NCBI GenBank assembly: GCA_002419385.1
Contig: DIFZ01000024.1
Span: forward strand, 749-64,748
Length of the DNA stretch: 64,000 nucleotides
From: Geobacter sp. UBA5735
GTDB lineage: Bacteria > Desulfobacterota > Desulfuromonadia > Geobacterales > Geobacteraceae
Direction of reading: 5' to 3'
Positions within the stretch are counted from its first letter, which is position 1, and each line of letters opens with the position of its first letter. The position numbers and the translations under genes are program-made. The notes under the pieces are model-generated. The model worked only from the letters and a program-made list of their open reading frames with translations, had not been told where the DNA came from and ran no database searches. Shown one piece after another: positions 2,269-17,761 of this stretch.

Positions 2269-2439
2269 TGTTTAATAAACATGAAACAGGGAGCGGTTTA
2301 TACTACATATATTTTCGCTTGTCAACATCTTTTCCCCAGCATGTGCCATGAAAACACTCGGGAAAGCAGCTGAAAGGACGGAAAGGAATGGCGGTATCGG
2401 CAATGAAGGGCCGGACAGAAAACTCCGGATGCCATAAAG

Positions 2440-3129
2440 TCAGCTCGCCAGCTCCAGGCCGGCGCTGCGAAGGGGAGGGAAGACGTGCATTTTTTTCCTG
2501 CCCTGTTCCAGGAACAGTATTTCGTCGGCCAGCTTCTGCATCTCCCGGCGGCTGTGGGTCACCAGCACGAAGGGTATCTTCCACACCTGCTGCAACTGTT
2601 TCAGTTCGGCCTGGAGATTTATCCGGTTGCGATGGTCCAGCGCGGACAACGGTTCGTCCAGCAGCAGGAGATCCGGTTCCACCATCAGTGCTCGGGCCAG
2701 GGCGATGCGCTGTTTCTCGCCGCCGGAGAGCTGGCAGGGGTACCTATCCTGGAGATGGGCCACCTTCAGCATGTCCATCACATCCATGGCGCCGATGCGG
2801 AAGTTCTTGCCCTTCTTGCAGGAGCGCGGAATGCCGTACATGACATTCCCCTTGACGGTCAGGTGTGGAAAAAGCGCATAATCCTGAAAAACATAGCCGA
2901 TTCGCCGGTTCCTTGCCGGTGTGCTGATCCCGTCACCAGCGGAAAAGAACAGCCGGTCGTCCAGGGAAATTCTGCCCGTATCCGGCTGCTGGAGGCCGGC
3001 GATGCAGTTCAGGACAGTAGTTTTCCCCGATCCCGATGGCCCGAAGAGAACCAGGATGCCCCTGTCGAACTCGAATGCTATGTCGACGGTGAAACCGGGA
3101 TGTTTTTTAAGAATCTCCACTTTCAGCAT
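2440..3129 (-). CDS. modC: molybdate-type ABC transporter ATP-binding protein (short form, no C-terminal TOBE/Mop domain)
   Basis: 229 aa. It has Walker A (GPSGSGKTT), the signature LSGGEKQRIALARAL and Walker B (LLLLDEP). It overlaps the end of the ModB-like permease gene by 23 nt. Its length leaves no room for the regulatory TOBE domain of E. coli ModC. Confidence 0.7.
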   Translation of the reverse strand: MLKVEILKKHPGFTVDIAFEFDRGILVLFGPSGSGKTTVLNCIAGLQQPDTGRISLDDRLFFSAGDGISTPARNRRIGYVFQDYALFPHLTVKGNVMYGIPRSCKKGKNFRIGAMDVMDMLKVAHLQDRYPCQLSGGEKQRIALARALMVEPDLLLLDEPLSALDHRNRINLQAELKQLQQVWKIPFVLVTHSRREMQKLADEILFLEQGRKKMHVFPPLRSAGLELAS

Positions 3130-3817
3130 GGGCAGGACTCCCTTTCTTCCAGGAGTGTATCTTGTTCCTGGACCACCAGTTAAGCCAGAACACCGCAGCG
3201 AATGACAGGATCGTAATCACCACTACCAGGTTCCGGGCAGCAGTCGTATCACCCGATTCCACGGCAAAGTAGATCGCCAGCGGAATGGTCTGGGTCTTGC
3301 CGGGAATGTTTCCCGCAACCATGAGTGTGGCGCCGAATTCGCCCAGCGCGCGCGCGAAGGAAAGCACCAGTCCTGCCAGGATTCCCGGCCAGGCCAAGGG
3401 CAGGGTCACGGTCAGGAATATGCGCAGTTCCCGTGCCCCCAGGGTACGTGCCGCCTGTTCGAGAGACACGTCAACGGCGGCGAATGCCGCCTTGGCGCTC
3501 TGGTACATGAGCGGAAAGGACACGACCGCCGATGCTATGACCGCTGCCCACCACGTGAAGACCAGCTGCGTGTCAAAGATTTCCAACAGGAAAGAGCCGA
3601 CCGGCCCCCGCTTGCCGAGGAGGATCAACAGGCCATAGCCGAGCACCGTCGGCGGAAGCACCATGGGAAGGATGATAAGCGACTCCACCAGGTTCTTGCC
3701 CGTAAATTCCTTGCGGGCCATGGTGCGCGCAACTGCCAGGCCGATGACAAAATCCACCGCAACGGCGACCAGCGCAACTTTCAAAGACAGGATTACGGGA
3801 TCGAGCATGGTCTCCAT
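3107..3817 (-). CDS. modB: molybdate ABC transporter permease
   Basis: 236 aa, polytopic. It has ModB-like blocks (ILPMVLPPTVLGYGLLILLGKRGPVG) and the EAA loop (EQAARTLGARELRIFLTVTLPLAWPGILAG). An alternative ATG lies at 3808. Confidence 0.75.
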   Translation of the reverse strand: METMLDPVILSLKVALVAVAVDFVIGLAVARTMARKEFTGKNLVESLIILPMVLPPTVLGYGLLILLGKRGPVGSFLLEIFDTQLVFTWWAAVIASAVVSFPLMYQSAKAAFAAVDVSLEQAARTLGARELRIFLTVTLPLAWPGILAGLVLSFARALGEFGATLMVAGNIPGKTQTIPLAIYFAVESGDTTAARNLVVVITILSFAAVFWLNWWSRNKIHSWKKGSPAHAESGDS

Positions 3818-3931
3818 TCCAGGTTTATTGCTCTGTAGTCATTCATGAATTAATAAATTATCACGAGTACCCTCCCTTGCGGGGAGGCCCGGGATGAGAA
3901 GGAAACAGCACACCCCCCATGGTTTTCTGTA

Positions 3932-4582
3932 TCAAGACAGGGAGCAGCCGGGCAAGCAGTGAAACGGCCTGATGTTGACGGCATCCACCCGCAGCGATCC
4001 GTTCGCCCTGGCGAGAAGGTTGAGGCAACCGTACTCCTGGCCCAGCAGAAAAAGGTTTTTCAGCGGCATGCCCAGGACATGGCAAAGGATCACCCGGTTG
4101 ACCCCGGCATGACCGACCACCAGGATCGTTCCCTCTTCCCGCTCCGCGATGTCCCGTAGAACCGGGACAACCCGATTCTGAAGATCCGCGAAGCTTTCTC
4201 CTCCGGGTGGACGATGGTGCTCAGGGTTCAATCCCCTGTCTGCGTACTCCACCGGTTGACTGTCACATAAGTCCGCCATTGCCAGGCCTTCCCAGCTCCC
4301 CATGGAGAGCTCCCTCAGCCCTGGATGAGGGGTGATCAATGCCTCGCTCCCGACCATGACGATCCCTGCGGTTTCCAGCGAGCGCTTAAGGTCGCTGCAG
4401 AAAACATGGCTGAACCGGGTGGAGGAGAGTTTGGAGCGCCACCAGTCGGCCTGTTCCCTGCCCCGATCGTTGAGAGGGTCATCGGATTGCCCGATATACC
4501 TCTTCACTGTGTCCTTCCTGGAATCTCCGTGCCGCAGGAGGAAAATCGGCCCGGTTTGAGCTTTGCCAGGTACGATCTTCAT
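3932..4582 (-). CDS. histidine phosphatase family protein (PGAM/CobC-like)
   Basis: 216 aa. It has the catalytic RHG motif (FLLRHGDS) and a later ...VGHAGVNR... block. There is an ATGA start/stop overlap with the upstream gene. Confidence 0.75.
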   Translation of the reverse strand: MKIVPGKAQTGPIFLLRHGDSRKDTVKRYIGQSDDPLNDRGREQADWWRSKLSSTRFSHVFCSDLKRSLETAGIVMVGSEALITPHPGLRELSMGSWEGLAMADLCDSQPVEYADRGLNPEHHRPPGGESFADLQNRVVPVLRDIAEREEGTILVVGHAGVNRVILCHVLGMPLKNLFLLGQEYGCLNLLARANGSLRVDAVNIRPFHCLPGCSLS

Positions 4583-5730
4583 AGACAGCCGTTTTCCGGG
4601 CTGCCCAGCCCGTCTTCCACCATCACCTGGACGACGGGGCAGCCCAACCGGCGCTCGATGCGCCCGCGCACCGACAGGGCATTTTCAAGCCTTCCCCGGG
4701 CCGCCCTGCCCGCCTCGGCGTCGGACTCGAGGGAAAGGAGACGGGGTGCGAACCGTTGCTCTACGGTAACGTACCTGTCCCTCTGCGTCATCTTGTCCGC
4801 CAGATAGAGCACTTCGCTTTCGCCAATGGAAGCGCCGCTCTCCAATACGATATCCATATGGACAGCCACTACTTCGGCAACGGGGCCGTATCCGAGTCCA
4901 GCCAGAAGTTTTGCGCCTTCACGGGCATGATCCTTCCTGCCCCTGGCGGCATCGTGCAGCAGTGCCGCGGCAGCCAGAAGATCGAGGTCCAGGCTGCAGC
5001 CGACATGGTTCAGCCTGCGCGCCAGGGAAAGTGCGAGCCTGGACACGGCGCGGCTGTGCTTTAGCAGCGGCGCCTCCGCTGCAAACTTCTTCACCAGAAG
5101 GTCCTCGCATTCCCGTACCGATGGAATTCCACGCCTCCGCATGATGGCATTGAGGCGATCGTAGTCCTCAGGAGTGTCCATGTCGTGGAGAATGCCCTCG
5201 TCATCCGTCTCCAAATCGCAGGAATCGTCGTAGTTGCGTGCCAATACGGGCTTCAGCCCGCCTTCTCCACTCCATTCCAGGATCACGTCACGATAGCGCG
5301 CAGCTATTAGCGGCGGATGGCCGCGCTTACCCTTGCAGACAGGATACAGGATGCCGCAGGTACCGTTTCGAAAAGCCCGCACCAGGGTGGAAACGGTCTC
5401 GACCCTGACCAGCGGAATGTCCACCGGCAGCAGAAAAAACGCCTCCACATCATCATCGAGGCTTGCGACACCGGCAACAATGGAACTGAACATGCCCTCC
5501 CGGTAACGGTCATTCACCACCGGGCGAACCTGCATGCATTTCAGCACCGGCAGCAGGTCTTCCGCCCGGTGCCCGACAACGACACGGATATCGTCGATGC
5601 CGGCATCGCGAAACAGGTCAACCGCCCGTTCCATTACGGTCGAATCACCCAGGGAAAGGAGCGGCTTGAACTCCCTCATGCGGGAAGAGTAGCCAGCCGC
5701 GAGGATTATGGCCGAGATCCTTCCATCCAT
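4579..5730 (-). CDS. MobA/MocA-like nucleotidyltransferase fused to an HD phosphohydrolase domain
   Basis: 383 aa. The N-terminus SAIILAAGYSSRM...KPLL is typical of molybdenum cofactor cytidylyl/guanylyl-transferases. The C-terminal half carries HD motifs (ALLHDAARG...KDHAREGAKLL). From memory this fusion is annotated as a DVU_1551-type NTP transferase, which I could not verify. Confidence 0.75.
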   Translation of the reverse strand: MDGRISAIILAAGYSSRMREFKPLLSLGDSTVMERAVDLFRDAGIDDIRVVVGHRAEDLLPVLKCMQVRPVVNDRYREGMFSSIVAGVASLDDDVEAFFLLPVDIPLVRVETVSTLVRAFRNGTCGILYPVCKGKRGHPPLIAARYRDVILEWSGEGGLKPVLARNYDDSCDLETDDEGILHDMDTPEDYDRLNAIMRRRGIPSVRECEDLLVKKFAAEAPLLKHSRAVSRLALSLARRLNHVGCSLDLDLLAAAALLHDAARGRKDHAREGAKLLAGLGYGPVAEVVAVHMDIVLESGASIGESEVLYLADKMTQRDRYVTVEQRFAPRLLSLESDAEAGRAARGRLENALSVRGRIERRLGCPVVQVMVEDGLGSPENGCL

Positions 5731-5731
5731 C

Positions 5732-6784
5732 TCAAAAACCTATCTGAGATCTCACCAGGATAAGCTGGGCGACGATACTGACTGCGATTTCCTCGGGCGT
5801 TTCAGCATGGATATCAAGCCCGATGGGATTGTGCACCCGTTTCAGGTCATCTTCCGTGAAGCCTTTGCCAAGCAGTTCCTCATAAAGCAGATGCTGTTTC
5901 CGCTTGCTGCCGATCATGCCTATGTAGCCCGCCTTCGTGCGCAGTGCCTGCTCCAGCACGGTCTTGTCATGGAGATGCCCACGCGTGACGATAACCAGGT
6001 AACTGTCCCCTTCGATCTCGAGCCCGTCGAAGAGGTTTTCATAGGAAGGGATAACGATGATCTGGTCCGCTTTGGGAAAACGCTCCTTGTTGGCGAATTC
6101 CGCCCGGTCATCAAGAACCACGGTGCGGAAATCAACCGTGGACGCCAGGTCCGCAACCGGGCGTGACACATGTCCGGCTCCGAACAGATAGACCGTACCG
6201 GGCAGAAAAGTGGGCTCTACGAAAAATCTGTTCCCTTCCAGAGAAACGGTTACCGGGCTCTTCTTCAAAGCCGACTCCCCGGTCAGACGAGGAATCCAGG
6301 ATTCGGTCCCCGGGAAACTTCCCAGATCCAGCTTGTCTCTCCGCACCAGGCAGTATTCCATCCGGGACACGCTGTCCCCCTTGGTATCAAGGGACTTGAT
6401 GAGATAGCCCTTTTTCCCTTCCTGGAGGGATGTTACCAGCTTGCGGAACTCGCTTGCCCCCTCATGCGAAGCAGTCAGATATTCCACCAGGAACTCAAGG
6501 CGGCCGCCGCAGATCATCTGATCGGTGGTGGCTGCATCCTCACCGGTGAGATCGACGGTCACAATCCGCGCCTTCCGGCTGTCGAATATTTCACGGGCCA
6601 GCTTCTGCATCTCGAACTCCACCAGGCCGCCGCCGATGGTGCCGATGATCGAACCATCCCGGCGGGCGAACATCTTTGAACCTACGGAACGGGGGGTCGA
6701 ACCCGCATGCTTGATAATGGTGGCCTGGACCAGGTCTTCGCCGCCTTCCAGAATATGGCAAATCCCTTGCAGTTGCTTGAGCAT
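5732..6784 (-). CDS. XdhC/CoxI family molybdoenzyme maturation protein
   Basis: Track ORF 5732..6976. I trimmed it to the ATG at 6784 (MLKQLQGICHILEGGED...). The upstream 64 codons overlap the ligase gene and look non-coding. It has an XdhC_CoxI N-domain and a Rossmann-like C-domain (VYLFGAGHVSRPVADLA). Confidence 0.8.
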   Translation of the reverse strand: MLKQLQGICHILEGGEDLVQATIIKHAGSTPRSVGSKMFARRDGSIIGTIGGGLVEFEMQKLAREIFDSRKARIVTVDLTGEDAATTDQMICGGRLEFLVEYLTASHEGASEFRKLVTSLQEGKKGYLIKSLDTKGDSVSRMEYCLVRRDKLDLGSFPGTESWIPRLTGESALKKSPVTVSLEGNRFFVEPTFLPGTVYLFGAGHVSRPVADLASTVDFRTVVLDDRAEFANKERFPKADQIIVIPSYENLFDGLEIEGDSYLVIVTRGHLHDKTVLEQALRTKAGYIGMIGSKRKQHLLYEELLGKGFTEDDLKRVHNPIGLDIHAETPEEIAVSIVAQLILVRSQIGF

Positions 6785-6789
6785 AAGAT

Positions 6790-8124
6790 TTATCTCTCCT
6801 CTCGGCTGTCGATTATTTTTCTCTTGATACTGCCGGTCGATATCCAGTTCTCGGAACTGGCGCGAATGGGCGCGATGGCAAGGAACCCGTTGTCGATTGC
6901 CGTCCGGATGGCCGGGATCGCTTCCAGCTTTTTCGCAGCCTGACTGCAAAGGTTCTCCGCATGGATATCTGCGCAATAGAGGGTTACACGAATGATTTGC
7001 ACATCACTCTCGCTTGCCAGTTCGACCCGGAAATTGAGCAGGCCGGGCAGAGGAAACAGCGCCTCGTCAAGGTCAGCAACGGTCAGATTCGCTCCTCCGC
7101 CCAGCCCGACTCCTCCCTGCAATCGGCCTCTCACCCACTCCAAACGCTTCAGGACCGTACCGCAGGGACACGGTTCCGGAATGAACCGCGACAGGTCGCC
7201 GGTGCGGTAGCGTACCAGCGGCATGCCTTTGCGGGTCAGCGTGGTGAACACCACTTCGCCTGGTTCTCCGTCAGGAACGGGTCGGCCCGTGTCCGGGTCG
7301 ATCATCTCGAAAAAGAGATCGGCTTCCCTGATGTGATACCCGTGGAGTGCACTGCAGTCCACCGCAGCGCCAAGCCCCATTTCGGTCATGCCGTAGTGGT
7401 TGAAGACCATGCATCCCCATGCGCTCTCGATCTCCCTCACGATGGCCGCCGGGACATAATCAGCACTCAACAGGACACTCCTGATCATTCCCTTCGGTAT
7501 GGACACGGCGTCCCGGTGGCGAACCAGGCTCAGCACCTGGACCGGAATGCCGATGAGGCAGTCAACCTCATGCTCCACGATCCCGGCAATGGTCTTCCCG
7601 CTGTCCAGGACTATCCCGTGCGGAATACCCTGTACATCCATGCGCCGCAGCGCCTTGACCATCAGGTTTCCCACAGTGCCGTGCCGGTCTGCGGGCATGA
7701 GTATGAGCACCTTTCCGCCCGGCCGGACCAGGGCTTTCATGCCGTGGTGGAACAGGTCGGTGGTCAGTTCGAGATCTTCCTCAGTGAAATGGATCCGCTT
7801 GGCATGGGTGGTGGTGCCGGAAGTGTTCAATGTCACGATGCGGGAAATCTCGTCCCGTGAAACGCACAGGAAGCGGAGATCATTCTCCTGGATGTCTTCA
7901 GCGGCAGTGAAAGGAAGGGATGCGATGTCTGTGAGTCCCTTCAGGTCACAGCCATGCACTCCCGCGAAAAGTTGACGGTAAAAGGGGCTGCGTGTCCGGA
8001 CGTAGTCGACCGTTTCACGCAGCTTCCCCAACTGATGCAGATCGATTTCCTCCCGCAGTTCAGCTCCTGTGGCGGAAGTGCCCAGTTTTTCCCTTATCCA
8101 TGGCTCTAAAGGGGTTATTTCCAT
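6790..8124 (-). CDS. PaaK / coenzyme F390 synthetase-like AMP-dependent ligase
   Basis: About 444 aa. It has an adenylate-forming core (TSGTTTHAKRI, YGMTEMG, YRTGD). The start was set at the ATG at 8124 (AAAGG upstream); the track start at 8142 is a TTG. From memory it resembles the DVU_1553-type ligase family. Confidence 0.75.
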   Translation of the reverse strand: MEITPLEPWIREKLGTSATGAELREEIDLHQLGKLRETVDYVRTRSPFYRQLFAGVHGCDLKGLTDIASLPFTAAEDIQENDLRFLCVSRDEISRIVTLNTSGTTTHAKRIHFTEEDLELTTDLFHHGMKALVRPGGKVLILMPADRHGTVGNLMVKALRRMDVQGIPHGIVLDSGKTIAGIVEHEVDCLIGIPVQVLSLVRHRDAVSIPKGMIRSVLLSADYVPAAIVREIESAWGCMVFNHYGMTEMGLGAAVDCSALHGYHIREADLFFEMIDPDTGRPVPDGEPGEVVFTTLTRKGMPLVRYRTGDLSRFIPEPCPCGTVLKRLEWVRGRLQGGVGLGGGANLTVADLDEALFPLPGLLNFRVELASESDVQIIRVTLYCADIHAENLCSQAAKKLEAIPAIRTAIDNGFLAIAPIRASSENWISTGSIKRKIIDSREER

Positions 8125-8187
8125 TGCATTACCTTTATTCAACGTTGCCGATTGTCATACCGGCTTCTCATCAATCATCATAGGCCA

Positions 8188-8220
8188 AGACCTGCCAGGT
8201 TTTCAAAACCTGGCAGGTCT
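8188..8220. repeat. perfect 33-nt palindrome between two genes of the operon
   Basis: agacctgccaggtttt c aaaacctggcaggtct: 16-nt arms that are perfect reverse complements. It lies in the 113-nt gap between the radical SAM stop and the ligase start. No U-tract follows on the transcribed strand. Confidence 0.6.
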
Positions 8221-8237
8221 GCGTCAACGTTCACTCT

Positions 8238-9614
8238 TCACAACTTTTCCCGGTACAGCCTCTCTCCCTTTGCTGACGTCAGGTTATAGAGACAGAACGG
8301 TATCATCCTGCCATCCGGGGCCACAACATGGATGCAGCAGTCCTTCGTCCGCTCCAGGTCCAGGTTCCAGGCATCCTGGAATGCCATGCACGAAACCGAC
8401 AGCATGTTCGTCCTGACCCGCTCGAGGAATCCGTCAAGAGAATCCACACCCGGCGCATTGGCGGAGGATTCGCAGCAGCGACACTCCGACACTTTGGCCG
8501 CAGGTGGCGCTGACCACTGTCGGGCCGTGAAGGAGACAGCATGGGCATCGCCACTTTCCGCGTCACCGCAACAGCCGCCGCCATGCCCGGTAAGAGCCTG
8601 CAGTCCGCCGTCCGGCTTCGGGATAAAGGTGCCGTGAAATGAACAGAGGGTATTTTCCCACCCCGGGGGTGTGAAGTCCCCGACGCGCATCAGCCCGTCC
8701 GTCTGTTCCTCGATCGCCAGCATGATGTCGGGCAGGGTGAGTCGACGGCTGTTGTCGGGAGCGTCCGGACAGCGGCCGAAGTAACCCACCGGCTGGAAAT
8801 GCACCCCCCGCACGCCGGGAGACAGTTCCAGGGCCAGCCTGATCATGGCGCCGATATTGTGGTGATTGACACCGGGAACAATGGTCGGCACCAGTACCAC
8901 GCCGATGCCGTTCTCCACGCACCGCTCTATGGCACGCCGTTTTTCGCCATAGAAAGCGCGCCCTCTCAGCTTCCGGTAGATTTCGTCTTCCGTCCCGTCG
9001 AACTGGAGAAAGACTGAAGCGGCACCGGCCTGCCGCAGCGCGGAAGCGTAATCCTCTTCCAATGCAAGCCGTAAGCCGTTGGTATTCACCTGGATGAAGG
9101 GGAAACCCAGGGAGCGCCCCATCTCGATAATGGCCGGGAGATCGTCCCGAACCGTCGGCTCGCCCCCGGACAGCTGGATAATGATGTCGGAACCGTATGC
9201 CCGGAGCACCCGCCGATACCATTCGGCGATCTCCTCCAGCGGAGGATCGGAAGCAGCTTCCGAGCCGGCATCGGCAAAACAGACAGGACAGCGCAGGTTG
9301 CAACGGCAGGTAACCTCGAGAACGGCCGTACAGGCATTCTTGCGGTGCGTCGGACAGATCCCGCAGTCAAACGGGCAGCCCCGCTCCGCAAGCGTCTGGG
9401 ATTCGCTGGTCCGCATCACGTTGGGCTGTCTTTTCCACCCTTGGAACTGCGGCCCGCCACGCCAGATGATGGTGCGGAACTCACCGTGCTCGGAGCACTT
9501 CTTTACCAGGTAAACATCATCACCATTGGCCTCCCTGACAGCAGGAATCCGCGCAAGACAGTGAGGGCAAAGGCTCTCGGTTCGAAAAGCCCCCCCGCAA
9601 TCGCAACCACCCAT
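8238..9614 (-). CDS. radical SAM protein with N-terminal zinc-ribbon
   Basis: 458 aa. It has the CxxxCxxC motif (CNLRCPVCFA), preceded by CPHC...C...H and CPFDCGIC Cys clusters. There is a TAATG overlap with the upstream gene. Confidence 0.8.
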   Translation of the reverse strand: MGGCDCGGAFRTESLCPHCLARIPAVREANGDDVYLVKKCSEHGEFRTIIWRGGPQFQGWKRQPNVMRTSESQTLAERGCPFDCGICPTHRKNACTAVLEVTCRCNLRCPVCFADAGSEAASDPPLEEIAEWYRRVLRAYGSDIIIQLSGGEPTVRDDLPAIIEMGRSLGFPFIQVNTNGLRLALEEDYASALRQAGAASVFLQFDGTEDEIYRKLRGRAFYGEKRRAIERCVENGIGVVLVPTIVPGVNHHNIGAMIRLALELSPGVRGVHFQPVGYFGRCPDAPDNSRRLTLPDIMLAIEEQTDGLMRVGDFTPPGWENTLCSFHGTFIPKPDGGLQALTGHGGGCCGDAESGDAHAVSFTARQWSAPPAAKVSECRCCESSANAPGVDSLDGFLERVRTNMLSVSCMAFQDAWNLDLERTKDCCIHVVAPDGRMIPFCLYNLTSAKGERLYREKL

Positions 9615-10051
9615 TACCTGCCCTCGAACAGGTTGAATTCGTTTTCCATCAGAATTTCCATGACCTTCCGGTAGGTCGCGGCAACCACACCGCCGCAGCG
9701 CTCGTTCCGGAGCGCACCCTCCTCTGATATGGCATCGCAGCTGATTCCGCCGTACTGTCCCGAATAGGTTGCCCGGAACCAGTCGCCCAATTCATGGAGC
9801 ATACCCATGAGACGGCAATGCTCTTCCTCATCATTCGTACCCTTTCCCGCATAAAGCGACAGGATGCAGGCGCCGCCCGTCAGAGCGCCGCAGACATCAC
9901 CGATTCCGACGCCGAAGGCCAGTCCGGCCATGGCACGAACGAGGTCGGGGTTGGTCTTTTCCTGGCTCTCCAGGGTAAGGAGCATCATGATCTGGCTGCA
10001 GTAATATCCCTTGGCTTTCAAATCCATCATGCGAAACATCAAATCATCCAT
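9614..10051 (-). CDS. C_GCAxxG_C_C family protein
   Basis: It carries the signature CSQ...GDVCGALTGGACIL...CRL...CD..C. The start was set at the ATG at 10051, which has AAGGGGGAG upstream and forms ATGGATGA with the methyltransferase stop. Confidence 0.75.
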   Translation of the reverse strand: MDDLMFRMMDLKAKGYYCSQIMMLLTLESQEKTNPDLVRAMAGLAFGVGIGDVCGALTGGACILSLYAGKGTNDEEEHCRLMGMLHELGDWFRATYSGQYGGISCDAISEEGALRNERCGGVVAATYRKVMEILMENEFNLFEGR

Positions 10052-10814
10052 TGAGACGCTCCCCCTTTTTCGAATTTCGTGCAACCAGCAAAAAATAACC
10101 GGGTGAAAACAGCCTGGAACCGGGCAAGCTGCCGCACCATGAATTCAAGATAGTGCGATATTCATGGATTTCAGTATGGGGTTCACTGCTGAGAATCAGT
10201 TGCGCCGCCAGTTCCTTGAGGTACCGTGTATGATCTTCCCACACCAGCAACTCGAACCCGGAATCTCCCAGAAGCTTTTCAATGAAAGTCCGTGTCTGAA
10301 GCATGGAAGAACATCCGCAGTACATCACCGGTTCCCTTGAACCGCCACAGTCCGGCTGGCGGTCATATATGTCGCTCAAAATCAGGACACCGTCGGCGCG
10401 AAGAACACGCAAAAACTCTCTTAGAGCCCGTTGAGGTTCCGTTACCAGTGAAAGCACACACTCGCACAGGATTACGTCGCAGCAGCAATCAGCAAAAGGA
10501 AGCTCTTCGGCCCGCGCCAAAGCCAGGGGAAGCGATTCAGCGCTCCCGGATTCGCGGAACAGGCATCCAGACACATCGACACCGAAAGCCCTGAAGCGGA
10601 GCTTGTTCCGCAAGTACTCGACCGTAGCTCCGGTCCCGCACCCCACATCGAGGACCCGAACCCCAGGGCTGAATCCACCAAGGGCAAGCCCCCTTTCAGT
10701 CAGCCGGAAACCTCCGGGCCTGAGCGCCGGGCCGGTCACCGCACGCAAGGAAGCCGATTCATGCAGTGCTGAGAGCGCCTGAATCGGCGTCTTGCCTTCC
10801 CTACTTGTCTTCAA
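10044..10814 (-). CDS. class I SAM-dependent methyltransferase
   Basis: It has the motif VLDVGCGTGATVEYL and a post-I acidic residue. The track start at 10970 adds a W/R-rich N-terminus that overlaps the Zn-ribbon gene in another frame. I placed the start tentatively at the TTG at 10814; the exact start is uncertain. Confidence 0.65.
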   Translation of the reverse strand: MKTSREGKTPIQALSALHESASLRAVTGPALRPGGFRLTERGLALGGFSPGVRVLDVGCGTGATVEYLRNKLRFRAFGVDVSGCLFRESGSAESLPLALARAEELPFADCCCDVILCECVLSLVTEPQRALREFLRVLRADGVLILSDIYDRQPDCGGSREPVMYCGCSSMLQTRTFIEKLLGDSGFELLVWEDHTRYLKELAAQLILSSEPHTEIHEYRTILNSWCGSLPGSRLFSPGYFLLVARNSKKGERLNG

Positions 10815-11004
10815 GGATTCGTTCTGCTTCCGCCATCCTCCCCAGAGCCAGGCTCTCCGGGACCAGGACGAGATCGCACGCCGGGCAGGCGGGCAGGTCC
10901 ACCTCGAAATTCCCTTTTTCGTATGAAAAGAATACCTTGGTGAGTTGAAGCTTTCCTCCGCAGGATGCACAGGTCCAGGCTTCGGCCTCTTGAGAGAAAT
11001 TCAT
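10801..11004 (-). CDS. small zinc-ribbon protein (CxxC...CxxC)
   Basis: 67 aa: MNFSQEAEAWTCASCGGKLQ...DLPACPACDLVLV. There is an ATGA overlap with the upstream oxidoreductase stop. From memory it matches a small 'redox protein' family named after DVU_1557. Confidence 0.6.
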   Translation of the reverse strand: MNFSQEAEAWTCASCGGKLQLTKVFFSYEKGNFEVDLPACPACDLVLVPESLALGRMAEAERILEDK

Positions 11005-13331
11005 TTCTTGATCCCCACGATTTTCATTCTGTGACAGTATGCATTCAGTACCGTGAAGCCATCGCCCTCAAGCTGATACTCCACCCAGAACGTCACGTTC
11101 GCCGGTTGCAGATATGCCAGGAAATTGCCGCTTTCACTGCACTGCATCCTCATGCCGCTCGATTCGGCATGCAAAATCACTTTCCTGATATCTTCCTCGA
11201 GGATCCTGCGCTCGTCGACGCGTTTGCGCACCTCGGGCGACATGACCAGCGCCAGCTTTTCGTAGTGCTCCAACTGAGGCTCCTTCCCCTCGCCAAGTTC
11301 AGCAAGGACAGATTCCTTGACGCGTACGCGGCCATCGCGGCGCTCCGACCAGGATATCCAGCCGCGGGCGGCGGGATCGGCGCCCGCGACAACGGGGAAA
11401 AGATGCTCGATGATATGGGATATGCGTTTCCCGACAAAGGCGAAGTTGTCCCTGCACATTGCGCAATACGCCAGGTAGTCGTTATCGCTCGCCGTTGTCC
11501 TCCTGGCAACCACGTCCCGTGCCAGGGTCGGGTTCGCGTTGTACATGAGCCCCCCGTAGCCGCAGCATTCCGGCTTCTCTCCGCTCAGTGGAAGCTCCTC
11601 GATGCCCATGCCGAGGGATTCGAGAATCCTGCGGATGCCCTGCTGCTCCTCCTGTTTCTGGCGGGACGCACAGGGATCGACAACCGATACGGTGACTTCC
11701 CCGGCCCCGGACACCCGTACCGAAACGGGCAACCCTGCATCAAGGATGGTACTCCAGAGAGAAACCGGTTCCGTTTCCGGCAGGTGTTCCTGGAACATAT
11801 TCAGGCAGGTAGTGCAGGCAGTGATGATCCGGGGTTTGCCCATCTTCTCCCAGCAACCCCGTATTTCGTTCAGCGCCTGACTGAACAGGTCTTCCCGTCC
11901 TGCCCAGAAAGCGGGGGCACCGCAGCAGTGGAGCAGGATGCCCACACCGCCGGTCAGCTTCTCCCTCAGGTAATGGTAGGAGGACAGGACCTCGCCAGGC
12001 GCGGATCCGCACAGCTGACAGCTGGGGAAATAGAGCCAGGCGCTCTCGCTTTTCCCAGGTTCACGGCGGCACAGGCTGAAAAGATCGCTGTTGCTGAATG
12101 CCATGTCGTCAAGGGCGAATTCGTGGAAGGAAGCCGGCATGATTTTCTGCTTCAGCAGGGTGCGGCGCGCCTCAAGACACATGTCGGCCATGCTGAAATC
12201 GTTCGGGCAGATGGTCTCGCACAGGCCGCAGGTGCTGCAGGAATTCGTGAAAACGTTGTACTGGTGGGCAGCACCCAGGAGGATACGTTCATTATTGAAG
12301 ATCTCCCGTGCGTATTTCTTCGGATACGCCTTGTAGCGTTCCAAAAAGAGGCATTTTTTCACGCACTCCCTGCATTCGCACTGAATGCAGCGCTTCGCCT
12401 CCATGTGCGCCTCTTCTTCCGAATAACCCTTTACGGAATCAGCAGGCACGACCCTCGGCAGCGGATCGATTCCTTCAAGGCTGGTGAAAAGCCGGGAACT
12501 GCATGGGCCCTCGTTTTCCCTGCCGAATTCCAAACCGACCTTCTGCATCAGGCGTTCTATGGAGAGGGCCGGCTTTCTTCCTTCCAATGTCTCCATGACC
12601 GGCGAAAAACCGCCTCGGAAGCGGGTACCGCCACCGGCGAACACCCCATCCCTGCCTGTGGCTCCCGTTGAAGGTGTAACAGCGATGAGGCCGTCGCCAT
12701 CCAGTTCGAGAGGAAGAGCACACCCATGGAATGAATCACGATCCAGAATCACGGCTGCGTATTCTTCACAAACCTGTTCAAAAAATGCCTTGTCAAGCCG
12801 GACTCCAAGGTGGATGTCCGCCATCATACTTTCAAGGACCAAGAGTTCCTCGGCGAGAATTTCCCGTGGCAGTATCCGCTCCGGAAGATCCCAAAGCGGC
12901 CCGCCAAGCCGCTCGCCCGATTCAAAAACGGAAACTACAAACCCTTTCTTGAGAAGATCCCAGGCGGCGGTTACACCGGCCAGACCCGCCCCGAGAACAG
13001 CGATGCGGTGGTTTTTGCGAGGCAGCAGCTGGACACGCTTTTTCCCGGCAAACTTCTCAACGCAGAGCCGTTCCAATGATCCGATGGCCAGGGGACCACC
13101 CACGGGGCCCCGCTTGCACCGCTCCTCGCAAGGATGGTCGCAGATGCGCCCCAGGATGCCGGGAAAAGGCATGGTCTTGTTCAGGACCTTATAGGCAGCG
13201 TCCCAGTCACCCTTGCGGATCTCCTTCAGAAAAAGCCTGGCATCGACATGGAGCGGACAGGCCGACGTACATTCGGGAGATTCCTCCTGGATGCATTTGT
13301 TTTCCCATGCAATGAGTTCGTTCTTTTCCAT
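11001..13331 (-). CDS. multidomain flavo/FeS oxidoreductase: GltD-like N-terminus, NAD(P)/FAD Rossmann, 2x[4Fe-4S], HdrD-type CCG domains
   Basis: Track ORF to 13409; I set the start at the ATG at 13331 (GAAGG upstream). Domains read in order:
- CPLHVDARLFLKEI...ICDHPCEERC, a glutamate-synthase small-subunit-like FeS domain.
- IAVLGAGLAGVTAAWDL, a dinucleotide-binding motif.
- CIQCECRECVKKC and CSTCGLCETICP, ferredoxin-type clusters.
- Two Cys-rich CCG-like regions (LHCCGAP, PECCGYGG). Confidence 0.75.
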   Translation of the reverse strand: MEKNELIAWENKCIQEESPECTSACPLHVDARLFLKEIRKGDWDAAYKVLNKTMPFPGILGRICDHPCEERCKRGPVGGPLAIGSLERLCVEKFAGKKRVQLLPRKNHRIAVLGAGLAGVTAAWDLLKKGFVVSVFESGERLGGPLWDLPERILPREILAEELLVLESMMADIHLGVRLDKAFFEQVCEEYAAVILDRDSFHGCALPLELDGDGLIAVTPSTGATGRDGVFAGGGTRFRGGFSPVMETLEGRKPALSIERLMQKVGLEFGRENEGPCSSRLFTSLEGIDPLPRVVPADSVKGYSEEEAHMEAKRCIQCECRECVKKCLFLERYKAYPKKYAREIFNNERILLGAAHQYNVFTNSCSTCGLCETICPNDFSMADMCLEARRTLLKQKIMPASFHEFALDDMAFSNSDLFSLCRREPGKSESAWLYFPSCQLCGSAPGEVLSSYHYLREKLTGGVGILLHCCGAPAFWAGREDLFSQALNEIRGCWEKMGKPRIITACTTCLNMFQEHLPETEPVSLWSTILDAGLPVSVRVSGAGEVTVSVVDPCASRQKQEEQQGIRRILESLGMGIEELPLSGEKPECCGYGGLMYNANPTLARDVVARRTTASDNDYLAYCAMCRDNFAFVGKRISHIIEHLFPVVAGADPAARGWISWSERRDGRVRVKESVLAELGEGKEPQLEHYEKLALVMSPEVRKRVDERRILEEDIRKVILHAESSGMRMQCSESGNFLAYLQPANVTFWVEYQLEGDGFTVLNAYCHRMKIVGIKK

Positions 13332-13380
13332 CGGGACCTTCTTTCGTCGGGAATCATGGAGAATGACAACAGAAAACGAT

Positions 13381-13407
13381 GGAGAGCCGGTGATGCGGTG
13401 ACTCTCC
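13381..13407 (-). promoter_or_regulatory. 5'-proximal stem-loop of the accessory-operon mRNA
   Basis: The minus-strand RNA GGAGAGUC-ACCGCAUCACC-GGCUCUCC forms an 8-bp stem including one G.U pair. That pair would be a C/A mismatch on the other strand. It is followed by AUCGUUUUCUGUUGU and lies between the ModE box and the start codon. Confidence 0.4.
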
Positions 13408-13435
13408 ATCGTTATAACATAAAATACATTACGAT
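13408..13435 (-). promoter_or_regulatory. ModE-type operator (box 1)
   Basis: The minus strand reads ATCGTAATGTA-TTTTAT-GTTATAACGAT. This is an 11-6-11 palindrome of the ATCGnTATATA-N6-TATATAnCGAT type. It sits about 75 nt upstream of the oxidoreductase start. Confidence 0.7.
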
Positions 13436-13499
13436 TAAAGTGTTATGGAGCCGGCCGGGTCATGCACCGGCTCCAAGAGCTTGAAACAGCCACTTTCTG

Positions 13500-16304
13500 C
13501 TATTTTTTCGGTGGCGCGGAGTTTACATCCTGGCATACATAACCCTGGGCCAGAGCGTCGGACACGTCGAAAGCCTTCTTCGGCGACTTGAGCGCCGCGA
13601 GGATCTTCTCGGGGTATGCCGGCAGGTGACGGATGCGTGCGCCGCATGCGTTGTCGATGGCGTTGATGACGGCGCAGTGAGGAGCGGACAGCGGAAGTTC
13701 GCCGACGCCGCCGGCGCCGAAGGCGCCCAGTTCACGAGGCTTGGTCACATAGATGATTTCGAGATCGTCGGTGATGTCCTTGCAGAACGGGAAGCCCGCG
13801 CCGATCATGTTGGAGTGCGCCTTGATCATCTCGAAGTCTTCGGTAAGGGCCAGTCCGATACCCTGGGCCAAACCGCCGTAGATCTGGCCGTCAACGACCA
13901 GTTGGTTGGTGATGGTGCCGACGTCGGCCACATGGGTCATCTTGTAGCAATGAGCCTTGCCGGTGGTAATGTCGACTTCGACTTCCGCCAGGAACAGACC
14001 GTACATGTAAATACAGAACGGTTCGCCCTTGCCGGTCTCGACGTCGCACGGCGTGCACGGCGTGGTCCATTTGCCGTATACCTGGGTTTCGATTCCTTCC
14101 TTCACCATTTCGTCATAGGTGCGATAGGTGCCGTCAGCTTTCCTCATGGCCGCAAGCAGGTTCTCGCAGGAAACCCTGATGGCGTTGCCGGTGACGACGT
14201 TGTTGCGGCTGCCGCCGGACGGGCCGCTGTTCGGGGTCAGACTGGTGTCGTTCAGGCAGAGGTGGATCTGGGACGGTTTCAGCCCGAGGGGCTTGAGGGT
14301 TTCATGGGCGAATGCAAGGGTGCCCATATCGGAACCCTGGCCGTGATCCTGCCAGCTGTTGCCCATCATCACTTCGTTGTTGGGCAGGAGTTTAGCCCAG
14401 CTTTCGGATGTGTCGGGGCCGTCGAGGCCGCAACCGTAGATGCCGAGGGAAACGCCGACGCCGCACTTCACGGTGTCGGTGCTTCTCAGTTTTGCGTTTG
14501 CAACGGCTCGCTCGTATTTCGGACGGAGCGCTTCGAACTGCTCAGGGAATACGAACACTTCCGGAGTCTGCTGAGTCGGGGTGGTTGCGCCGGGGCGGTA
14601 GCAGTTGATTTCGCGGAGTTCGAACGGGTCTTTCCCCATTTTCTTGGCCAGCTCGTCGATAAGGGACTCGGAGGCGAAGAAGGCCTGCGGAGAACCGTAT
14701 GCGCGGAAAGGGGCGCCCCAGCAGTGGTTGGTGCAGACTGTCCGGCCTTCACCGCGCATGTTCGGGATGTCGTAGCCTGCGAAGGCGTACTGTAAACCAC
14801 GAACGGTGAGGAGGTCGCCGAACTCGGAGTAGGGACCGTGGTCGACGGACCAGTCGGTTTCCGTGGCGAGGAATTTGCCGTCTTTGTCAGCGGCAATCCT
14901 GGCCTTGAACCAGAACGGAGAGCGCTTGCCGGTGTAGAACTGCAGTTGAGCCCAAGAGCAGGAAAGGTGAACCGGTTTGCCGCCGACCGCCATGGTGGCA
15001 ACCGCGAGCAGGGCTTCGTTGGAAGGACAGAATTTGTAACCGAAGGAGCTGCCGCAGGGGTTCTGTACGATGACCAGGTTTTCCAGTTCGACGCCGACAC
15101 CCGGGGCGATCATTGCCTGGTGCAATTGCAGACAAATGGACTTGGAATGGACGACCACCTTGCCTTCATCATTGATGTACGCGAATCCGACGTCCGGCTC
15201 GACGGGCATCTGGGGTTGACGGCCGAGATAGTACTCGCCTTCCACAACATAGGCGGCTTTTTCCATGATCGGCTTGGTGTCCTCACCCTTGACCAGATTC
15301 TGGGTGAAGTAGACGTTCGGGGTGCCGGGGTGAATTTCAATTGCGTCCGGAGCCATGGCTGCCGGCGCGTTCATGTAGTGCGGCAGCACTTCCAGGTCGA
15401 ACTTAACCAGCTTCGCAGCGGCATCGGCATGCGCTTTTGTGTCGGCAATTACGAGAGCAATGGCGTCCCCATACTGGAAGACCTTCTGGTCGTTGAGAAT
15501 CGGGCGGTCCCATCCGTCACCCTTATTGGTGGGGAAGGTAATCAGACCGGTGATGCGGTTCTTGCCCTTGACGTCCTTGTGGGTTACAACCTTGACCACG
15601 CCCGGCGCCTTCTCTGCTGCGGAGGTGTCGATCCCCTTGATGTTTGCATGGGCCACATCGGCGTACGCGATGGCGGCATGGAGGGTGTCTTCGGGGAGCT
15701 GGTCGGCCTTATCGTTGCCGAAATCCCAGAGTCCGCAGACCTTGGCAACGGATGTGGGACGCGGATACCGTGTTCCGTAAACCCTGCCGTCCTCAGGGGC
15801 CTTGTAATCAAATACGGATGCGGACATTTCGCCGCGCAGAACCTTGGCGGCGTCCATCACTGCGTCAACGATGGAGATGTAACCGGTGCAGCGGCAGGCA
15901 TTCTTGTACTGGTGGAACCAGTCACGCACTTCTTCACGGGTCGGGTTCGGGTTGGAATCGAGGAGCGCCTTGGCGGAGACTATGAAACCAGGGGTACAGA
16001 AACCGCACTGAAGTGCGCCGTGGTGGATGAAAGCCTTCTGGAGGGGGTGGAGGTTAATCGGTGTACCGATCCCCTCGGTGGTGGTAATCGTCGACCAGTT
16101 TTCGACCCGCTTCATCTTCATGGTGCAGGTGCGAACGAGCTTGCCGTTCAGGATGACATTGCAGGCGCCGCATGTGCCGGTCGCGCATCCGACCTTGACA
16201 CTGGTCAGGTGTAACTGTTTCCGCAGAACATCGGACAGGAGAGCTTCCTGGTCAACGATCAGCGTCCTCTCGACACCATTTACTTTGAGAACCTTTTTAA
16301 TCAT
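13500..16304 (-). CDS. mop: aldehyde oxidoreductase, xanthine-oxidase family, MOP type (2x[2Fe-2S] plus molybdopterin domains in one chain)
   Basis: Start set at MIKKVLKVNG (AAAGGAGGAGG upstream). The N-terminus KVNGVERTLIVDQEALLSDVLRKQLHLTSVKVGCATGTCGACNVILNGKLVRTCTMKMKRV is near-colinear with Desulfovibrio gigas MOP as I remember it. The second 2Fe-2S motif is CGFCTPGF, followed by about 750 aa of molybdopterin-binding domains. Confidence 0.9.
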   Translation of the reverse strand: MIKKVLKVNGVERTLIVDQEALLSDVLRKQLHLTSVKVGCATGTCGACNVILNGKLVRTCTMKMKRVENWSTITTTEGIGTPINLHPLQKAFIHHGALQCGFCTPGFIVSAKALLDSNPNPTREEVRDWFHQYKNACRCTGYISIVDAVMDAAKVLRGEMSASVFDYKAPEDGRVYGTRYPRPTSVAKVCGLWDFGNDKADQLPEDTLHAAIAYADVAHANIKGIDTSAAEKAPGVVKVVTHKDVKGKNRITGLITFPTNKGDGWDRPILNDQKVFQYGDAIALVIADTKAHADAAAKLVKFDLEVLPHYMNAPAAMAPDAIEIHPGTPNVYFTQNLVKGEDTKPIMEKAAYVVEGEYYLGRQPQMPVEPDVGFAYINDEGKVVVHSKSICLQLHQAMIAPGVGVELENLVIVQNPCGSSFGYKFCPSNEALLAVATMAVGGKPVHLSCSWAQLQFYTGKRSPFWFKARIAADKDGKFLATETDWSVDHGPYSEFGDLLTVRGLQYAFAGYDIPNMRGEGRTVCTNHCWGAPFRAYGSPQAFFASESLIDELAKKMGKDPFELREINCYRPGATTPTQQTPEVFVFPEQFEALRPKYERAVANAKLRSTDTVKCGVGVSLGIYGCGLDGPDTSESWAKLLPNNEVMMGNSWQDHGQGSDMGTLAFAHETLKPLGLKPSQIHLCLNDTSLTPNSGPSGGSRNNVVTGNAIRVSCENLLAAMRKADGTYRTYDEMVKEGIETQVYGKWTTPCTPCDVETGKGEPFCIYMYGLFLAEVEVDITTGKAHCYKMTHVADVGTITNQLVVDGQIYGGLAQGIGLALTEDFEMIKAHSNMIGAGFPFCKDITDDLEIIYVTKPRELGAFGAGGVGELPLSAPHCAVINAIDNACGARIRHLPAYPEKILAALKSPKKAFDVSDALAQGYVCQDVNSAPPKK

Positions 16305-17715: not shown

Positions 17716-17761
17716 ATGAAAAACCCGCATCAATACTGAATTCATTCAGTATCAATGCGGG
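17716..17761 (-). terminator. intrinsic terminator/attenuator inside the MoeA-like leader
   Basis: Minus-strand RNA: CCCGCAUUGAUACUGAAU-GA-AUUCAGUAUUGAUGCGGG then UUUUUCAUUC. The arms are 18 nt and contain two G.U pairs. Those would be C/A mismatches on the plus strand, so the hairpin is strand-specific. It sits about 110 nt upstream of the start codon and about 150 nt downstream of the predicted promoter. Confidence 0.7.

Follow-up and report, generated by a model that had tools for sequence, protein, structure and literature searches.

The Desulfovibrio gigas-type aldehyde oxidoreductase (AOR) was the first xanthine oxidase family enzyme with a solved structure. The D. gigas enzyme contains molybdopterin cytosine dinucleotide (MCD) and two [2Fe-2S] clusters and has no flavin domain; its flavodoxin partner is described only as ‘putative’, its MCD is ordinary at 1.28 Å, and the lack of a sulfido ligand and unusual activation behavior are treated as an accepted oddity (PMC10223205). 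Here we analyze nine open reading frames, all on the minus strand at 3932-13334, that lie downstream of a MOP-type aldehyde oxidoreductase gene in a 64,000-nt stretch of Geobacter sp. UBA5735 (contig DIFZ01000024.1), hereafter the window. A sequence-only reading of this DNA had called the set conserved but uncharacterized and had given DVU_1551-DVU_1557 family names to several of its members.

Both descriptions hold, and the names are confirmed by NCBIfam. Eight of the nine proteins, together with MOP, exceed the cutoffs of dedicated, consecutive equivalog models (NF045645/6 and NF045663-9), which bear the names DVU_1551, XdhC_rel_AOR, DVU_1553, TrsS, DVU_1555, DVU_1556, DVU_1557, ‘diclust_near_Sec’ and ‘pterin_aldehy’. 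Since these models cover the whole neighborhood, any suggestion of unnoticed novelty falls away: the set is a catalogued neighborhood, not a newly discovered entity, to which the window adds a Trp-variant member. A 2026 review (PMC13188914) lists TrsS as a selenoprotein and credits Haft & Tolstoy 2025 (mSystems 10:e0141724), and a literature search on DVU1551-1559 returned passing mentions alone. We add the invariant LEDK end of the DUF7479 protein, fusions of this domain, the GDGT-MAS metal sites of the radical S-adenosylmethionine (SAM) enzyme TrsS, and the ArsM cysteines of the methyltransferase.

We propose, with moderate confidence, that the locus is a Geobacteraceae-like member of the DVU_1551-DVU_1559 neighborhood composed of three modules, for cofactor supply, electron exit, and tailoring. 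Family assignments, linkage, fusions, motifs, and molybdenum-responsive elements were observed directly; from these we infer the direction of electron flow and the target of tailoring.

Conservation and composition of the gene set

MOP, the nine genes, and two spacer elements are arranged as follows (coordinates, strand, feature; aa, amino acids):

13500-16304, minus, MOP-type aldehyde oxidoreductase, 934 aa (NF045668)
13335-13499, minus, MOP-to-operon spacer, 165 nt
11001-13334, minus, FAD/FeS/CCG oxidoreductase, 777 aa (NF045663)
10801-11004, minus, Zn-ribbon DVU_1557/DUF7479 protein, 67 aa (NF045645)
10044-10814, minus, DVU_1556 SAM methyltransferase with ArsM-like core, 256 aa (NF045667)
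9614-10051, minus, DVU_1555 C_GCAxxG_C_C protein, 145 aa (NF045669)
8238-9614, minus, TrsS, GDGT-MAS-like radical SAM enzyme, 458 aa (NF045646)
8189-8219, minus, palindrome within the TrsS-to-ligase spacer
6790-8124, minus, DVU_1553 PaaK-like adenylate-forming ligase, 444 aa (NF045666)
5732-6784, minus, XdhC-family aldehyde oxidoreductase maturation factor, 350 aa (NF045664)
4579-5730, minus, MocA-like cytidylyltransferase fused to HD phosphohydrolase, 383 aa (NF045665)
3932-4582, minus, CobC-like histidine phosphatase, 216 aa (TIGR03162, sub-cutoff)

The nine-gene, minus-strand set that the sequence-only reading had placed beside MOP is real. With a TrsS alignment we scanned a single genome from each species and obtained at least 584 relatives, from which we kept 80 loci (L-numbers denote the related loci compared). 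They come from Thermodesulfobacteriota, Bacillota, and Chloroflexota, with sources among Geobacteraceae, Desulfobacterales, Desulfovibrionales, Syntrophobacterales, Desulfosporosinus, Sporomusa, Clostridium, and Anaerolineae. Gene order hardly varies among them and is identical in 50+ genomes; the recurrent arrangement, MOP-FAD/FeS/CCG-DUF7479-methyltransferase-C_GCAxxG-TrsS-ligase, is seen in about 92% of the 61 genomes that are informative, which span at least three phyla. Because this order recurs in 80 loci of three phyla, the arrangement is far from chance.

Linkage, counted only over TrsS-anchored loci with enough flank, was:

C_GCAxxG protein, 73/76
ligase, 73/75
DUF7479 protein, 71/74
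methyltransferase, 67/74
FAD/FeS/CCG protein, 62/68
MOP, 56/61 (about 92%)
XdhC, 43/71
MocA-HD, 39/69
phosphatase, 38/67

By these fractions the tightest unit comprises DUF7479, C_GCAxxG, TrsS, and the ligase, and the cofactor genes are the loosest. Conservation of the set with mop, as had been claimed, is borne out by the MOP count, yet the stricter form of that idea, always with mop and never without it, fails both ways: five of 61 TrsS loci have no adjacent MOP, and L086 has an intact MOP followed only by a GltD-like flavoprotein, the rest of the set being missing from the locus. The L086 arrangement fits a flavin module that is a MOP partner in its own right. Other look-ups anchored on MOP found the set in six loci (L083, L084, L085, L089, L090, and L091); two further loci were degenerate and three ended at a contig edge. 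Among loci where MOP is absent, L045 (Thermincola) has a tungsten AOR and a MopB-family enzyme (2402-8643) upstream of a shortened FAD/FeS gene, and in L041 and L060 the ligase still accompanies TrsS and DUF7479. The MOP-less set of L041 (Sporomusa sp. KB1) consists of FAD/FeS-DUF7479-C_GCAxxG-TrsS-ligase and adjoins a plasmid Rep3 initiator gene, which hints at mobility.

MOP and its candidate electron-transfer partner

By sequence, MOP is orthologous from end to end to the enzymes of D. desulfuricans and D. gigas. It scores 1568 bits to NF045668 (cutoff 1100), matches PDB 1DGJ and 1SIJ over its full length with 1325 and 1296 bits (about 1300 bits for 1DGJ and 1SIJ/1VLB), and has two [2Fe-2S] domains and no FAD domain. 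The window protein carries a C-terminal extension of ~27 aa (...KKAFDVSDALAQGYVCQDVNSAPPKK, 13500-13583) relative to the 907-aa crystallized enzymes; different, Lys/Ala-rich extensions are found in L005 and L007. A word-indexed protein search with D. gigas MOP residues 1-463, rebuilt from the PDB alignment, recovered only shortened proteins (377-808 aa, at most 79% identity) and not the D. gigas 907-aa entry. Many shortened MOP products lie on contigs of long-read metagenome-assembled genomes (MAGs) in which every operon gene is frameshift-split (L083, L089, and L091). The presence of the set in the D. gigas genome is presumed from the DVU locus-tag names and from Maridesulfovibrio locus L074.

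The protein encoded next to MOP is a candidate for its missing flavin partner. It scores 996 bits to NF045663 (cutoff 530) and runs from an NfnB/GltD-like module with 2x[4Fe-4S] and FAD, through a 2x[4Fe-4S] dicluster and two CCG motifs, to a conserved C-terminal domain (Pfam Fer4_20, NAD_binding_8, Fer4_17, and CCG). Residues 9-198 align with NfnB (PDB 4YLF_B, 3e-28). Across 60 sequences 29 cysteines are invariant, and none of the 60 departs from the cysteines of the two complete CCG motifs (C439, C470, C471, C507, and C510, and C555, C590, C591, C624, and C627). The large protein thus looks like an NfnB/GltD-like module combined with an HdrD-like one, an electron-transfer partner more than a tailoring enzyme.

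The small Zn-ribbon protein appears to belong with it. The 67-aa DUF7479 protein (NF045645, 88.6 bits versus cutoff 60) has four invariant cysteines and ends in LEDK, followed by the stop codon, in 73 of 73 homologues of the loci. AlphaFold2 models its core at pLDDT 83-88 but its tail at ~46, even though no part of the protein is better conserved than the tail. When 1.8 billion representatives were searched and the best 150 inspected, the domain was always found at the extreme C-terminus; 108 of these 150 end in LEDK and most of the others in [LMIF]E[DEGSQ]K. In at least 12 cluster representatives DUF7479 is part of a protein of 780-895 aa, and the three scanned with Pfam (P0423, P0447, and P0458) have the architecture Fer4_20-FAD-Fer4_17-CCG-DUF7479. 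Among our loci, L040, an Illumina MAG, has DUF7479 as the C-terminal part of its FAD/FeS/CCG protein. The C-terminal fusions, the stop-codon overlap described below, and the conserved low-pLDDT tail suggest that the oxidoreductase includes DUF7479 as a subunit or domain and that the flexible DUF7479 tail is functionally critical.

In the proposed electron-exit module, flavin-less MOP would pass the electrons of aldehyde oxidation through the FAD/FeS/CCG protein, of which DUF7479 would form a terminal domain or subunit with a flexible LEDK tail, to NAD(P)/ferredoxin and/or a thiol-disulfide couple. The sequence-only reading had seen a tailoring pathway in all members beyond MocA and XdhC. That view survives for the ligase, TrsS, the methyltransferase, and the C_GCAxxG_C_C protein; at least two proteins, FAD/FeS/CCG and DUF7479, instead resemble an electron-transfer partner.

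TrsS and the proposed tailoring genes

TrsS (NF045646, 656 bits versus cutoff 490) is closely related to GDGT-MAS, an enzyme that works via a carbon-cluster-sulfur intermediate (PMC9433317). It matches PDB 7TOL (GDGT-MAS) at 1.5e-87 by sequence and with a Foldseek TM-score of 0.75, and it keeps all four GDGT-MAS metal sites, namely the rubredoxin, [4Fe4S]N, radical SAM, and C-terminal cluster sites. The motifs C16X2C19X20C40X2H43, C80/C84/C87/H90, and C105X3C109X2C112 equal those of GDGT-MAS with identical spacing, and the C-terminal cluster residues M410, C426, C427, and C441 are all conserved. This kinship raises the idea that TrsS is a bacterial tetraether (membrane-spanning lipid) synthase whose adjacency to MOP is incidental, and the Tes model NF045702 is indeed its second-best NCBIfam match, at 349.5 bits. 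That score is below the Tes cutoff of 450, however, and residues 317-397, which correspond to the lipid-binding segment, are unaligned to 7TOL, Cys-rich, and of low pLDDT, with the motif PPG[C/U/W]ExxLCSFH...CC in place of the lipid pocket. With gene order beside MOP fixed across phyla, and no lipid-synthesis genes conserved near the 80 loci, we regard a tetraether synthase as extremely improbable.

The variable position of this motif, column 319, distinguishes the window. Over the 80 loci and the window it is Cys in 57 sequences, Trp in six including the window, and selenocysteine (Sec) in four, encoded by an in-frame TGA in L020, L052, L058, and L062 (Desulfobacteraceae). The window has TGG (8658-8660), one base from TGA; its closest relatives L001-L003 and L033, and also L029, share the Trp. 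Selenocysteine is optional in the TrsS family.

A pterin link suggested by the Pfam name ‘HMPTM’ was rejected. It rests on the annotation of MJ0619 as a pterin methylase, which the GDGT-MAS structure paper rejects, its authors having failed to reproduce the activity (PMC9433317). Given this withdrawn annotation of the TrsS family and the ordinary MCD of the orthologous enzyme at 1.28 Å (PMC10223205), the modified pterin entertained by the sequence-only reading is unlikely.

The methyltransferase (NF045667, 221 bits versus cutoff 155) has an ArsM-like substrate site. In the alignment with CmArsM, C94 falls on C174 and C143 on C224, the two residues that bind As(III); all 62 sequences compared have C94, and 49 of the 62 have C143. 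The window protein keeps C143 (10386-10388) and has Gly21 where 48 of 62 homologues have Cys. Loss of the TrsS column-319 Cys accompanies loss of C143 (9/13 versus 3/43, Fisher p = 1.6e-5, uncorrected for phylogeny and reflecting roughly four independent events). All four Sec-type TrsS proteins are without the CC348/349 pair and their methyltransferases without C143; in most Trp-type loci the methyltransferase likewise has no C143-equivalent cysteine. This joint loss hints that TrsS and the methyltransferase handle the same group.

Radical SAM and ArsM pairing is a hallmark of organoarsenical pathways, and a further alternative is that TrsS, the methyltransferase, and the ligase make or detoxify a small organo-arsenic, -selenium, or -sulfur compound, with MOP and its redox partner oxidizing an aldehyde intermediate. 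ArsM models are the best non-family matches of the methyltransferase, both arsenic-binding Cys equivalents are kept, TrsS is a selenoprotein in some lineages, and an ArsM-like methyltransferase-DUF2703 fusion (L041:1417-4151) lies 3.5 kb upstream of the MOP-less set of L041. The methyltransferase nevertheless scores only 54.6 bits to the ArsM model NF008823 (cutoff 263) and, at 256 aa, is without the ArsM N-terminal domain and its Cys pair. No transporter, ars, or selenium genes are conserved across the 80 loci, regulation is of the molybdenum type (ModE boxes and Moco-II RNA), and the neighbors, among them alcohol dehydrogenases, sigma-54 activators, and tungsten AORs, are those of ethanol/aldehyde catabolism. 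We consider this alternative distinctly unlikely.

The C_GCAxxG_C_C protein (NF045669, 166 bits versus cutoff 103) has four cysteines that are invariant in 77 sequences, and a sequence search found no PDB relative. The ligase (NF045666, 465 bits versus cutoff 300) has invariant C257, C319, and C321; it matches PaaK (PDB 4R1L) at 9e-40 and also resembles the amide-forming PaaK-like ligases 6WUQ and 6SIW. Its closeness to phenylacetate-CoA ligases would suit a plain catabolic route, in which an acid formed by MOP from an aldehyde is activated to an acyl-CoA by the ligase and the remaining genes handle the same substrate; an Fe-alcohol dehydrogenase is nearby in 10 loci and sigma-54 activators in 19. 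We give this route very little credence. The PaaK model scores 167 bits, far under its cutoff of 700; no beta-oxidation, ring-reduction, or thiolase genes are conserved; and such a pathway has no role for a GDGT-MAS-like radical SAM enzyme, an ArsM-like methyltransferase, or two small Cys proteins, nor does it suit the retention of the ligase with TrsS and DUF7479 in MOP-less L041 and L060.

In the three-module proposal, the ligase, TrsS, the ArsM-core methyltransferase, and the C_GCAxxG_C_C protein would act together on a thiophilic sulfur or selenium group, as suggested by TrsS itself, the ArsM-like cysteines, the ligase cysteines, and the cysteine desulfurases embedded in some operons. The favored target is the DUF7479 tail: the ligase would attach an arm, radical chemistry would thiolate it, a methyl group would be added, and the CCG site would service it. 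In its most specific form, by analogy with carrier proteins, DUF7479 would be a carrier or else the terminal domain of the Hdr/Nfn-like oxidoreductase, and its invariant C-terminal Lys would bear a novel prosthetic arm that the ligase attaches, TrsS thiolates or selenolates, and the ArsM-like enzyme methylates; we hold this version to be improbable. If true, the CCG site could cycle the arm between oxidized and reduced states and so couple low-potential aldehyde oxidation by MOP to thiol/disulfide chemistry. Set beside LysW-type carriers, DUF7479 shows a Zn ribbon, four invariant Cys, and an invariant low-pLDDT tail, but this tail ends in Lys, not Glu. A LysW-like fold was considered and rejected, LysW not being among the Foldseek matches of DUF7479; the best match is the MqsA Zn ribbon (E = 0.077), and Foldseek found no lipoyl-domain similarity. 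No ATP-grasp (LysX-type) gene is present in the 80 loci.

Gene junctions and probable molybdenum-responsive control

The sequence-only reading had described the genes as a translationally chained operon. Each of its quoted junctions was reproduced exactly on re-reading the minus strand, namely the overlaps ATGA at 11004-11001, ATGGATGA at 10051-10044, TAATG at 9616-9612, and ATGA at 4582-4579, and the gaps of 1 nt at 5731 and 5 nt at 6785-6789. A fifth coupled junction can be added. The methyltransferase gene has no ATG start; its TTG (10814) lies within the L64-E65 codons of the Zn-ribbon gene, giving an overlap of 14 nt. The LEDK codons and stop of DUF7479 (CTT GAA GAC AAG TAG, 10801-10815) thus hold this start in the +1 frame, and for this reason the conserved tail and the methyltransferase start limit each other's variation; other lineages have an ATGA overlap here. 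The chain does not extend from TrsS to the ligase, which are 113 nt apart (8125-8237).

This spacer contains, just after the TrsS stop codon, the palindrome GACCTGCCAGGTTTT-G-AAAACCTGGCAGGTC (8189-8219), a perfect 15+1+15 repeat. L001, L008, and L033 keep it, the L033 copy with a compensatory change; in L003 half of it is deleted. Most other lineages have no palindrome and abutting TrsS and ligase genes, the junction being at most 10 nt in 51 of 69 other loci. The palindrome could be an mRNA-stabilizing hairpin or a protein-binding site. A reading as a SECIS element was rejected; the TrsS model ends at the stop codon, and the Sec site of the family is column 319.

The start of the first accessory gene required correction. 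The earlier position, 13409, falls inside a hairpin, and the gene most likely starts at ATG 13334, which has the ribosome-binding site GAAAGAAGG and agrees with the NF045663 profile start and with relatives. The adjacent predicted ModE box at 13408-13435, proposed in the sequence-only reading, matches 16 of the 20 scored positions of the E. coli/Geobacter-type consensus ATCGNTATATA-N6-TATATANCGAT (PMC545781) and is kept in the three closest genomes, L002, L003, and L008. Scanning with this consensus found three sites with at most four mismatches in the window and none in 30 shuffles. The others lie between the MOP unit and a divergent ModE-N-like gene: a candidate operator at 17915-17942 that matches 18 of 20 positions (two mismatches) and a further box at 18209-18236 with four mismatches. 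The divergent gene (18347-18703, plus strand) encodes a 118-aa regulator with only the ModE N-terminal domain (Pfam HTH_1; TIGR00637 ModE_repress 83.5 bits, below the cutoff of 98.5), and a homologous gene is near the set in nine related loci.

Read 5' to 3' on the minus strand, the spacer at 13367-13474 holds hairpin 1 (13447-13474), the ModE box, and hairpin 2 followed by UUUUCU (13367-13412), with an RNA fold z-score of -4.05. The box and hairpin 2 are conserved in L002, L005, L007, and L012, where stem substitutions stay complementary. The U-tract (UUUUCU, 13370-13375) can pair with the Shine-Dalgarno AGAAGG (13340-13346) of the FAD/FeS gene; RNAalifold on the operon leader of seven aligned relatives allows this pairing in all of them, weakly and with zero covariation, and it may be due to chance.

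Upstream and downstream of the set lie the following features:

17757-17802, minus, Moco-II RNA motif, head of the moeA-like/MOP transcription unit
16582-17607, minus, MoCF_biosynth (molybdopterin-binding) gene (Pfam PF00994)
3107-3817, minus, modB, molybdate ABC transporter permease (Pfam BPD_transp_1)
2440-3129, minus, modC, molybdate ABC transporter ATPase (Pfam ABC_tran)

The Moco-II motif (Rfam RF01713) scores 53.6 bits against a gathering score of 35, and its 3' end (AAACCCGC) doubles as the left arm of a 20-pair, terminator-like hairpin (17721-17764) that a T-run follows. In 50 of 51 loci, 50 nt or more separate MOP from the next gene, when most other junctions are at most 10 nt. From the ModE box, the hairpins, Moco-II, and this gap, we conclude that the accessory genes probably form their own molybdenum-responsive unit behind MOP.

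A second Moco-II motif (22185-22229, minus strand; RF01713, 53.4 bits versus gathering score 35) heads an operon at 18835-21498, also on the minus strand, that encodes a DsrM/NarI-like membrane protein, a DsrK-like CCG protein (381 bits, slightly below the cutoff of 400), and a NifX-like FeMo-cofactor-binding-domain protein. The DsrMK-like pair, about 5-6 kb upstream of the MOP operon, may represent a menaquinol-linked thiol/disulfide-type complex under Moco control.

Cofactor genes and the case for molybdenum-site maturation

MocA and XdhC were named by the sequence-only reading as the sole members with an established role, and this is upheld. XdhC (NF045664, 432 bits versus cutoff 350) has the Pfam domains XdhC_CoxI and XdhC_C. 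MocA-HD (NF045665, 437 bits versus cutoff 315; Pfam NTP_transf_3 and HD) scores 134.6 bits to TIGR03310, below the cutoff of 186, and is for that reason a MocA relative and not an equivalog. The phosphatase has no dedicated NCBIfam model and scores 155.3 bits to TIGR03162, slightly below the cutoff of 162.9. In 38 of 39 loci its gene comes after that of MocA-HD, and L048 and L084 encode the two as a single fused protein, so that it is likely tied functionally to MocA-HD and may be placed with the dinucleotide step. A ligase-XdhC fusion in L083 was dismissed as a probable frameshift in a long-read MAG, and apparent fusions in L033 and L037 are false, with stop codons present. In the proposed supply module, MocA-HD and the CobC-like phosphatase would make or trim the cytosine dinucleotide, and XdhC would hold and insert the cofactor. 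The module also takes in the MoCF_biosynth protein and modBC; the former is encoded directly upstream of MOP in 31 related loci and in L084, L085, L090, and L092, and modB begins 114 nt past the phosphatase gene, with modBC likewise placed in L002, L003, L005, L007, L008, L014, and L033.

Sulfur- and metal-related genes recur in the wider surroundings. NifX-like proteins are near the set in seven loci, and cysteine desulfurases in five, three of them inside the operon (class-V aminotransferases of the cysteine desulfurase/selenocysteine lyase type at L060:8373-9497, L063:8520-9653, and L037:3296-4561); in L060 the gene occupies the usual methyltransferase position. Tungsten AORs are in or beside four loci (L045:2402-8643, L085:19639-21537, L091:711-2618, and L092:2768-4526), and the one in L085 is inserted between the ligase and XdhC. 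These and the alcohol dehydrogenase neighbors match the physiology of Pelobacter carbinolicus, in which the Mo-dependent Pcar_0220 replaces tungsten AORs in ethanol oxidation when only molybdate is supplied (PMC4275255).

A broader role in maturation is the strongest alternative to three modules, and although we think it doubtful, it deserves serious weight. The whole set would then mature the molybdenum site or cofactor of MOP, installing or repairing a labile sulfur-, selenium-, or methyl-bearing ligand that is lost in the aerobically purified enzyme, and the FAD/FeS/CCG protein would supply electrons. Other xanthine-oxidase-family enzymes, CO dehydrogenase among them, need multi-gene active-site assembly. 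In the window, XdhC and MocA-HD are packed tightly together with the rest of the set, a conserved ModE box belongs to the operon itself, and the NCBI name of the XdhC member is ‘aldehyde oxidoreductase maturation factor’. Cysteine desulfurases are embedded in the operons of L060, L063, and L037, L045 has the set beside other pterin enzymes (the tungsten AOR and MopB-family enzyme), and the sulfido-free D. gigas AOR shows unusual activation (PMC10223205). Conversely, crystal structures of close orthologues show plain MCD with no extra ligand, subject to two reservations: purification was aerobic, and the D. gigas genome is only presumed to carry the set. Linkage is weakest for XdhC and MocA (57-61%), L086 retains an intact MOP with only the flavin module, and the fusion partner of DUF7479 is the redox protein and neither XdhC nor MOP. 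We prefer the three-module proposal because the loose cofactor genes, the DUF7479 fusions, and L086 are poorly explained by maturation.

Several points weigh against our proposal. For the six core proteins the case is computational throughout, and CCG domains occur also in enzymes without a disulfide substrate. The FAD module aligns to NfnB/GltD over the first ~200 residues only, leaving the NAD(P)H site putative. The carrier arm is an analogy only, with no Foldseek similarity to LysW or lipoyl domains and no LysX- or LplA-type partner. The Cys/Sec residue of TrsS cannot be essential in the window lineage, judging from the Trp that stands there. Finally, the operon's own ModE box and the XdhC, MocA, and sometimes cysteine desulfurase genes inside it fit cofactor maturation equally.

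The three-module proposal would nonetheless supply candidates for the missing flavin partner of D. gigas-type aldehyde oxidoreductases, whose acceptor is still ‘putative’ and whose sulfido-free active site is still treated as an exception. It also points to a type of chemistry so far unreported among radical SAM enzymes of the GDGT-MAS type. D. vulgaris Hildenborough, which is genetically tractable, carries the set.

Comparison with known systems

The cofactor genes resemble the XdhC/MocA (PaoD/MocA) maturation of MCD enzymes in that a MocA-type NTP transferase and a two-domain XdhC are encoded beside the structural gene. Here, however, MocA is fused to an HD domain and is paired, sometimes fused, with a CobC-like phosphatase, and for six additional conserved genes the E. 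coli and Rhodobacter systems offer no equivalent. With Hdr-type proteins (HdrD/HdrB CCG, and DsrK acting on the DsrC arm), the set shares a dicluster, two CCG motifs, and a small flexible-arm partner. It differs in its cysteine-free arm, which ends in Glu-Asp-Lys, and in the NfnB/GltD-like flavin module to which its CCG part is joined.

TrsS shares four metallocofactor motifs, their spacing, and the fold with GDGT-MAS/Tes (7TOL; PMC9433317), from which it is set apart by its sub-cutoff Tes score, a Cys-rich insert in place of the lipid pocket, and the molybdoenzyme context. In a way suggestive of the LysW and lipoyl (LplA, LipA) carrier systems, the small Zn-ribbon protein, whose acidic C-terminal tail is invariant, is encoded next to an adenylate-forming ligase, a radical SAM enzyme with auxiliary clusters, and a flavin/disulfide-type reductase, but there is no sequence or fold similarity to those carriers and the ligase is of the PaaK type, not ATP-grasp or LplA. 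The arsinothricin ArsL/ArsM and arsenosugar ArsS/ArsM systems likewise place a radical SAM enzyme beside a methyltransferase with both ArsM substrate cysteines. In the window, by contrast, the radical SAM enzyme is of another family, the methyltransferase is without the ArsM N-terminal domain, and regulation and neighbors point to molybdenum and aldehydes.

The closest likeness is to the DVU_1551-DVU_1559 neighborhood, with every modeled protein above its cutoff and the same gene order. The window differs from it by the Trp that TrsS carries in place of Cys or Sec and by the 113-nt palindrome spacer that splits the operon.

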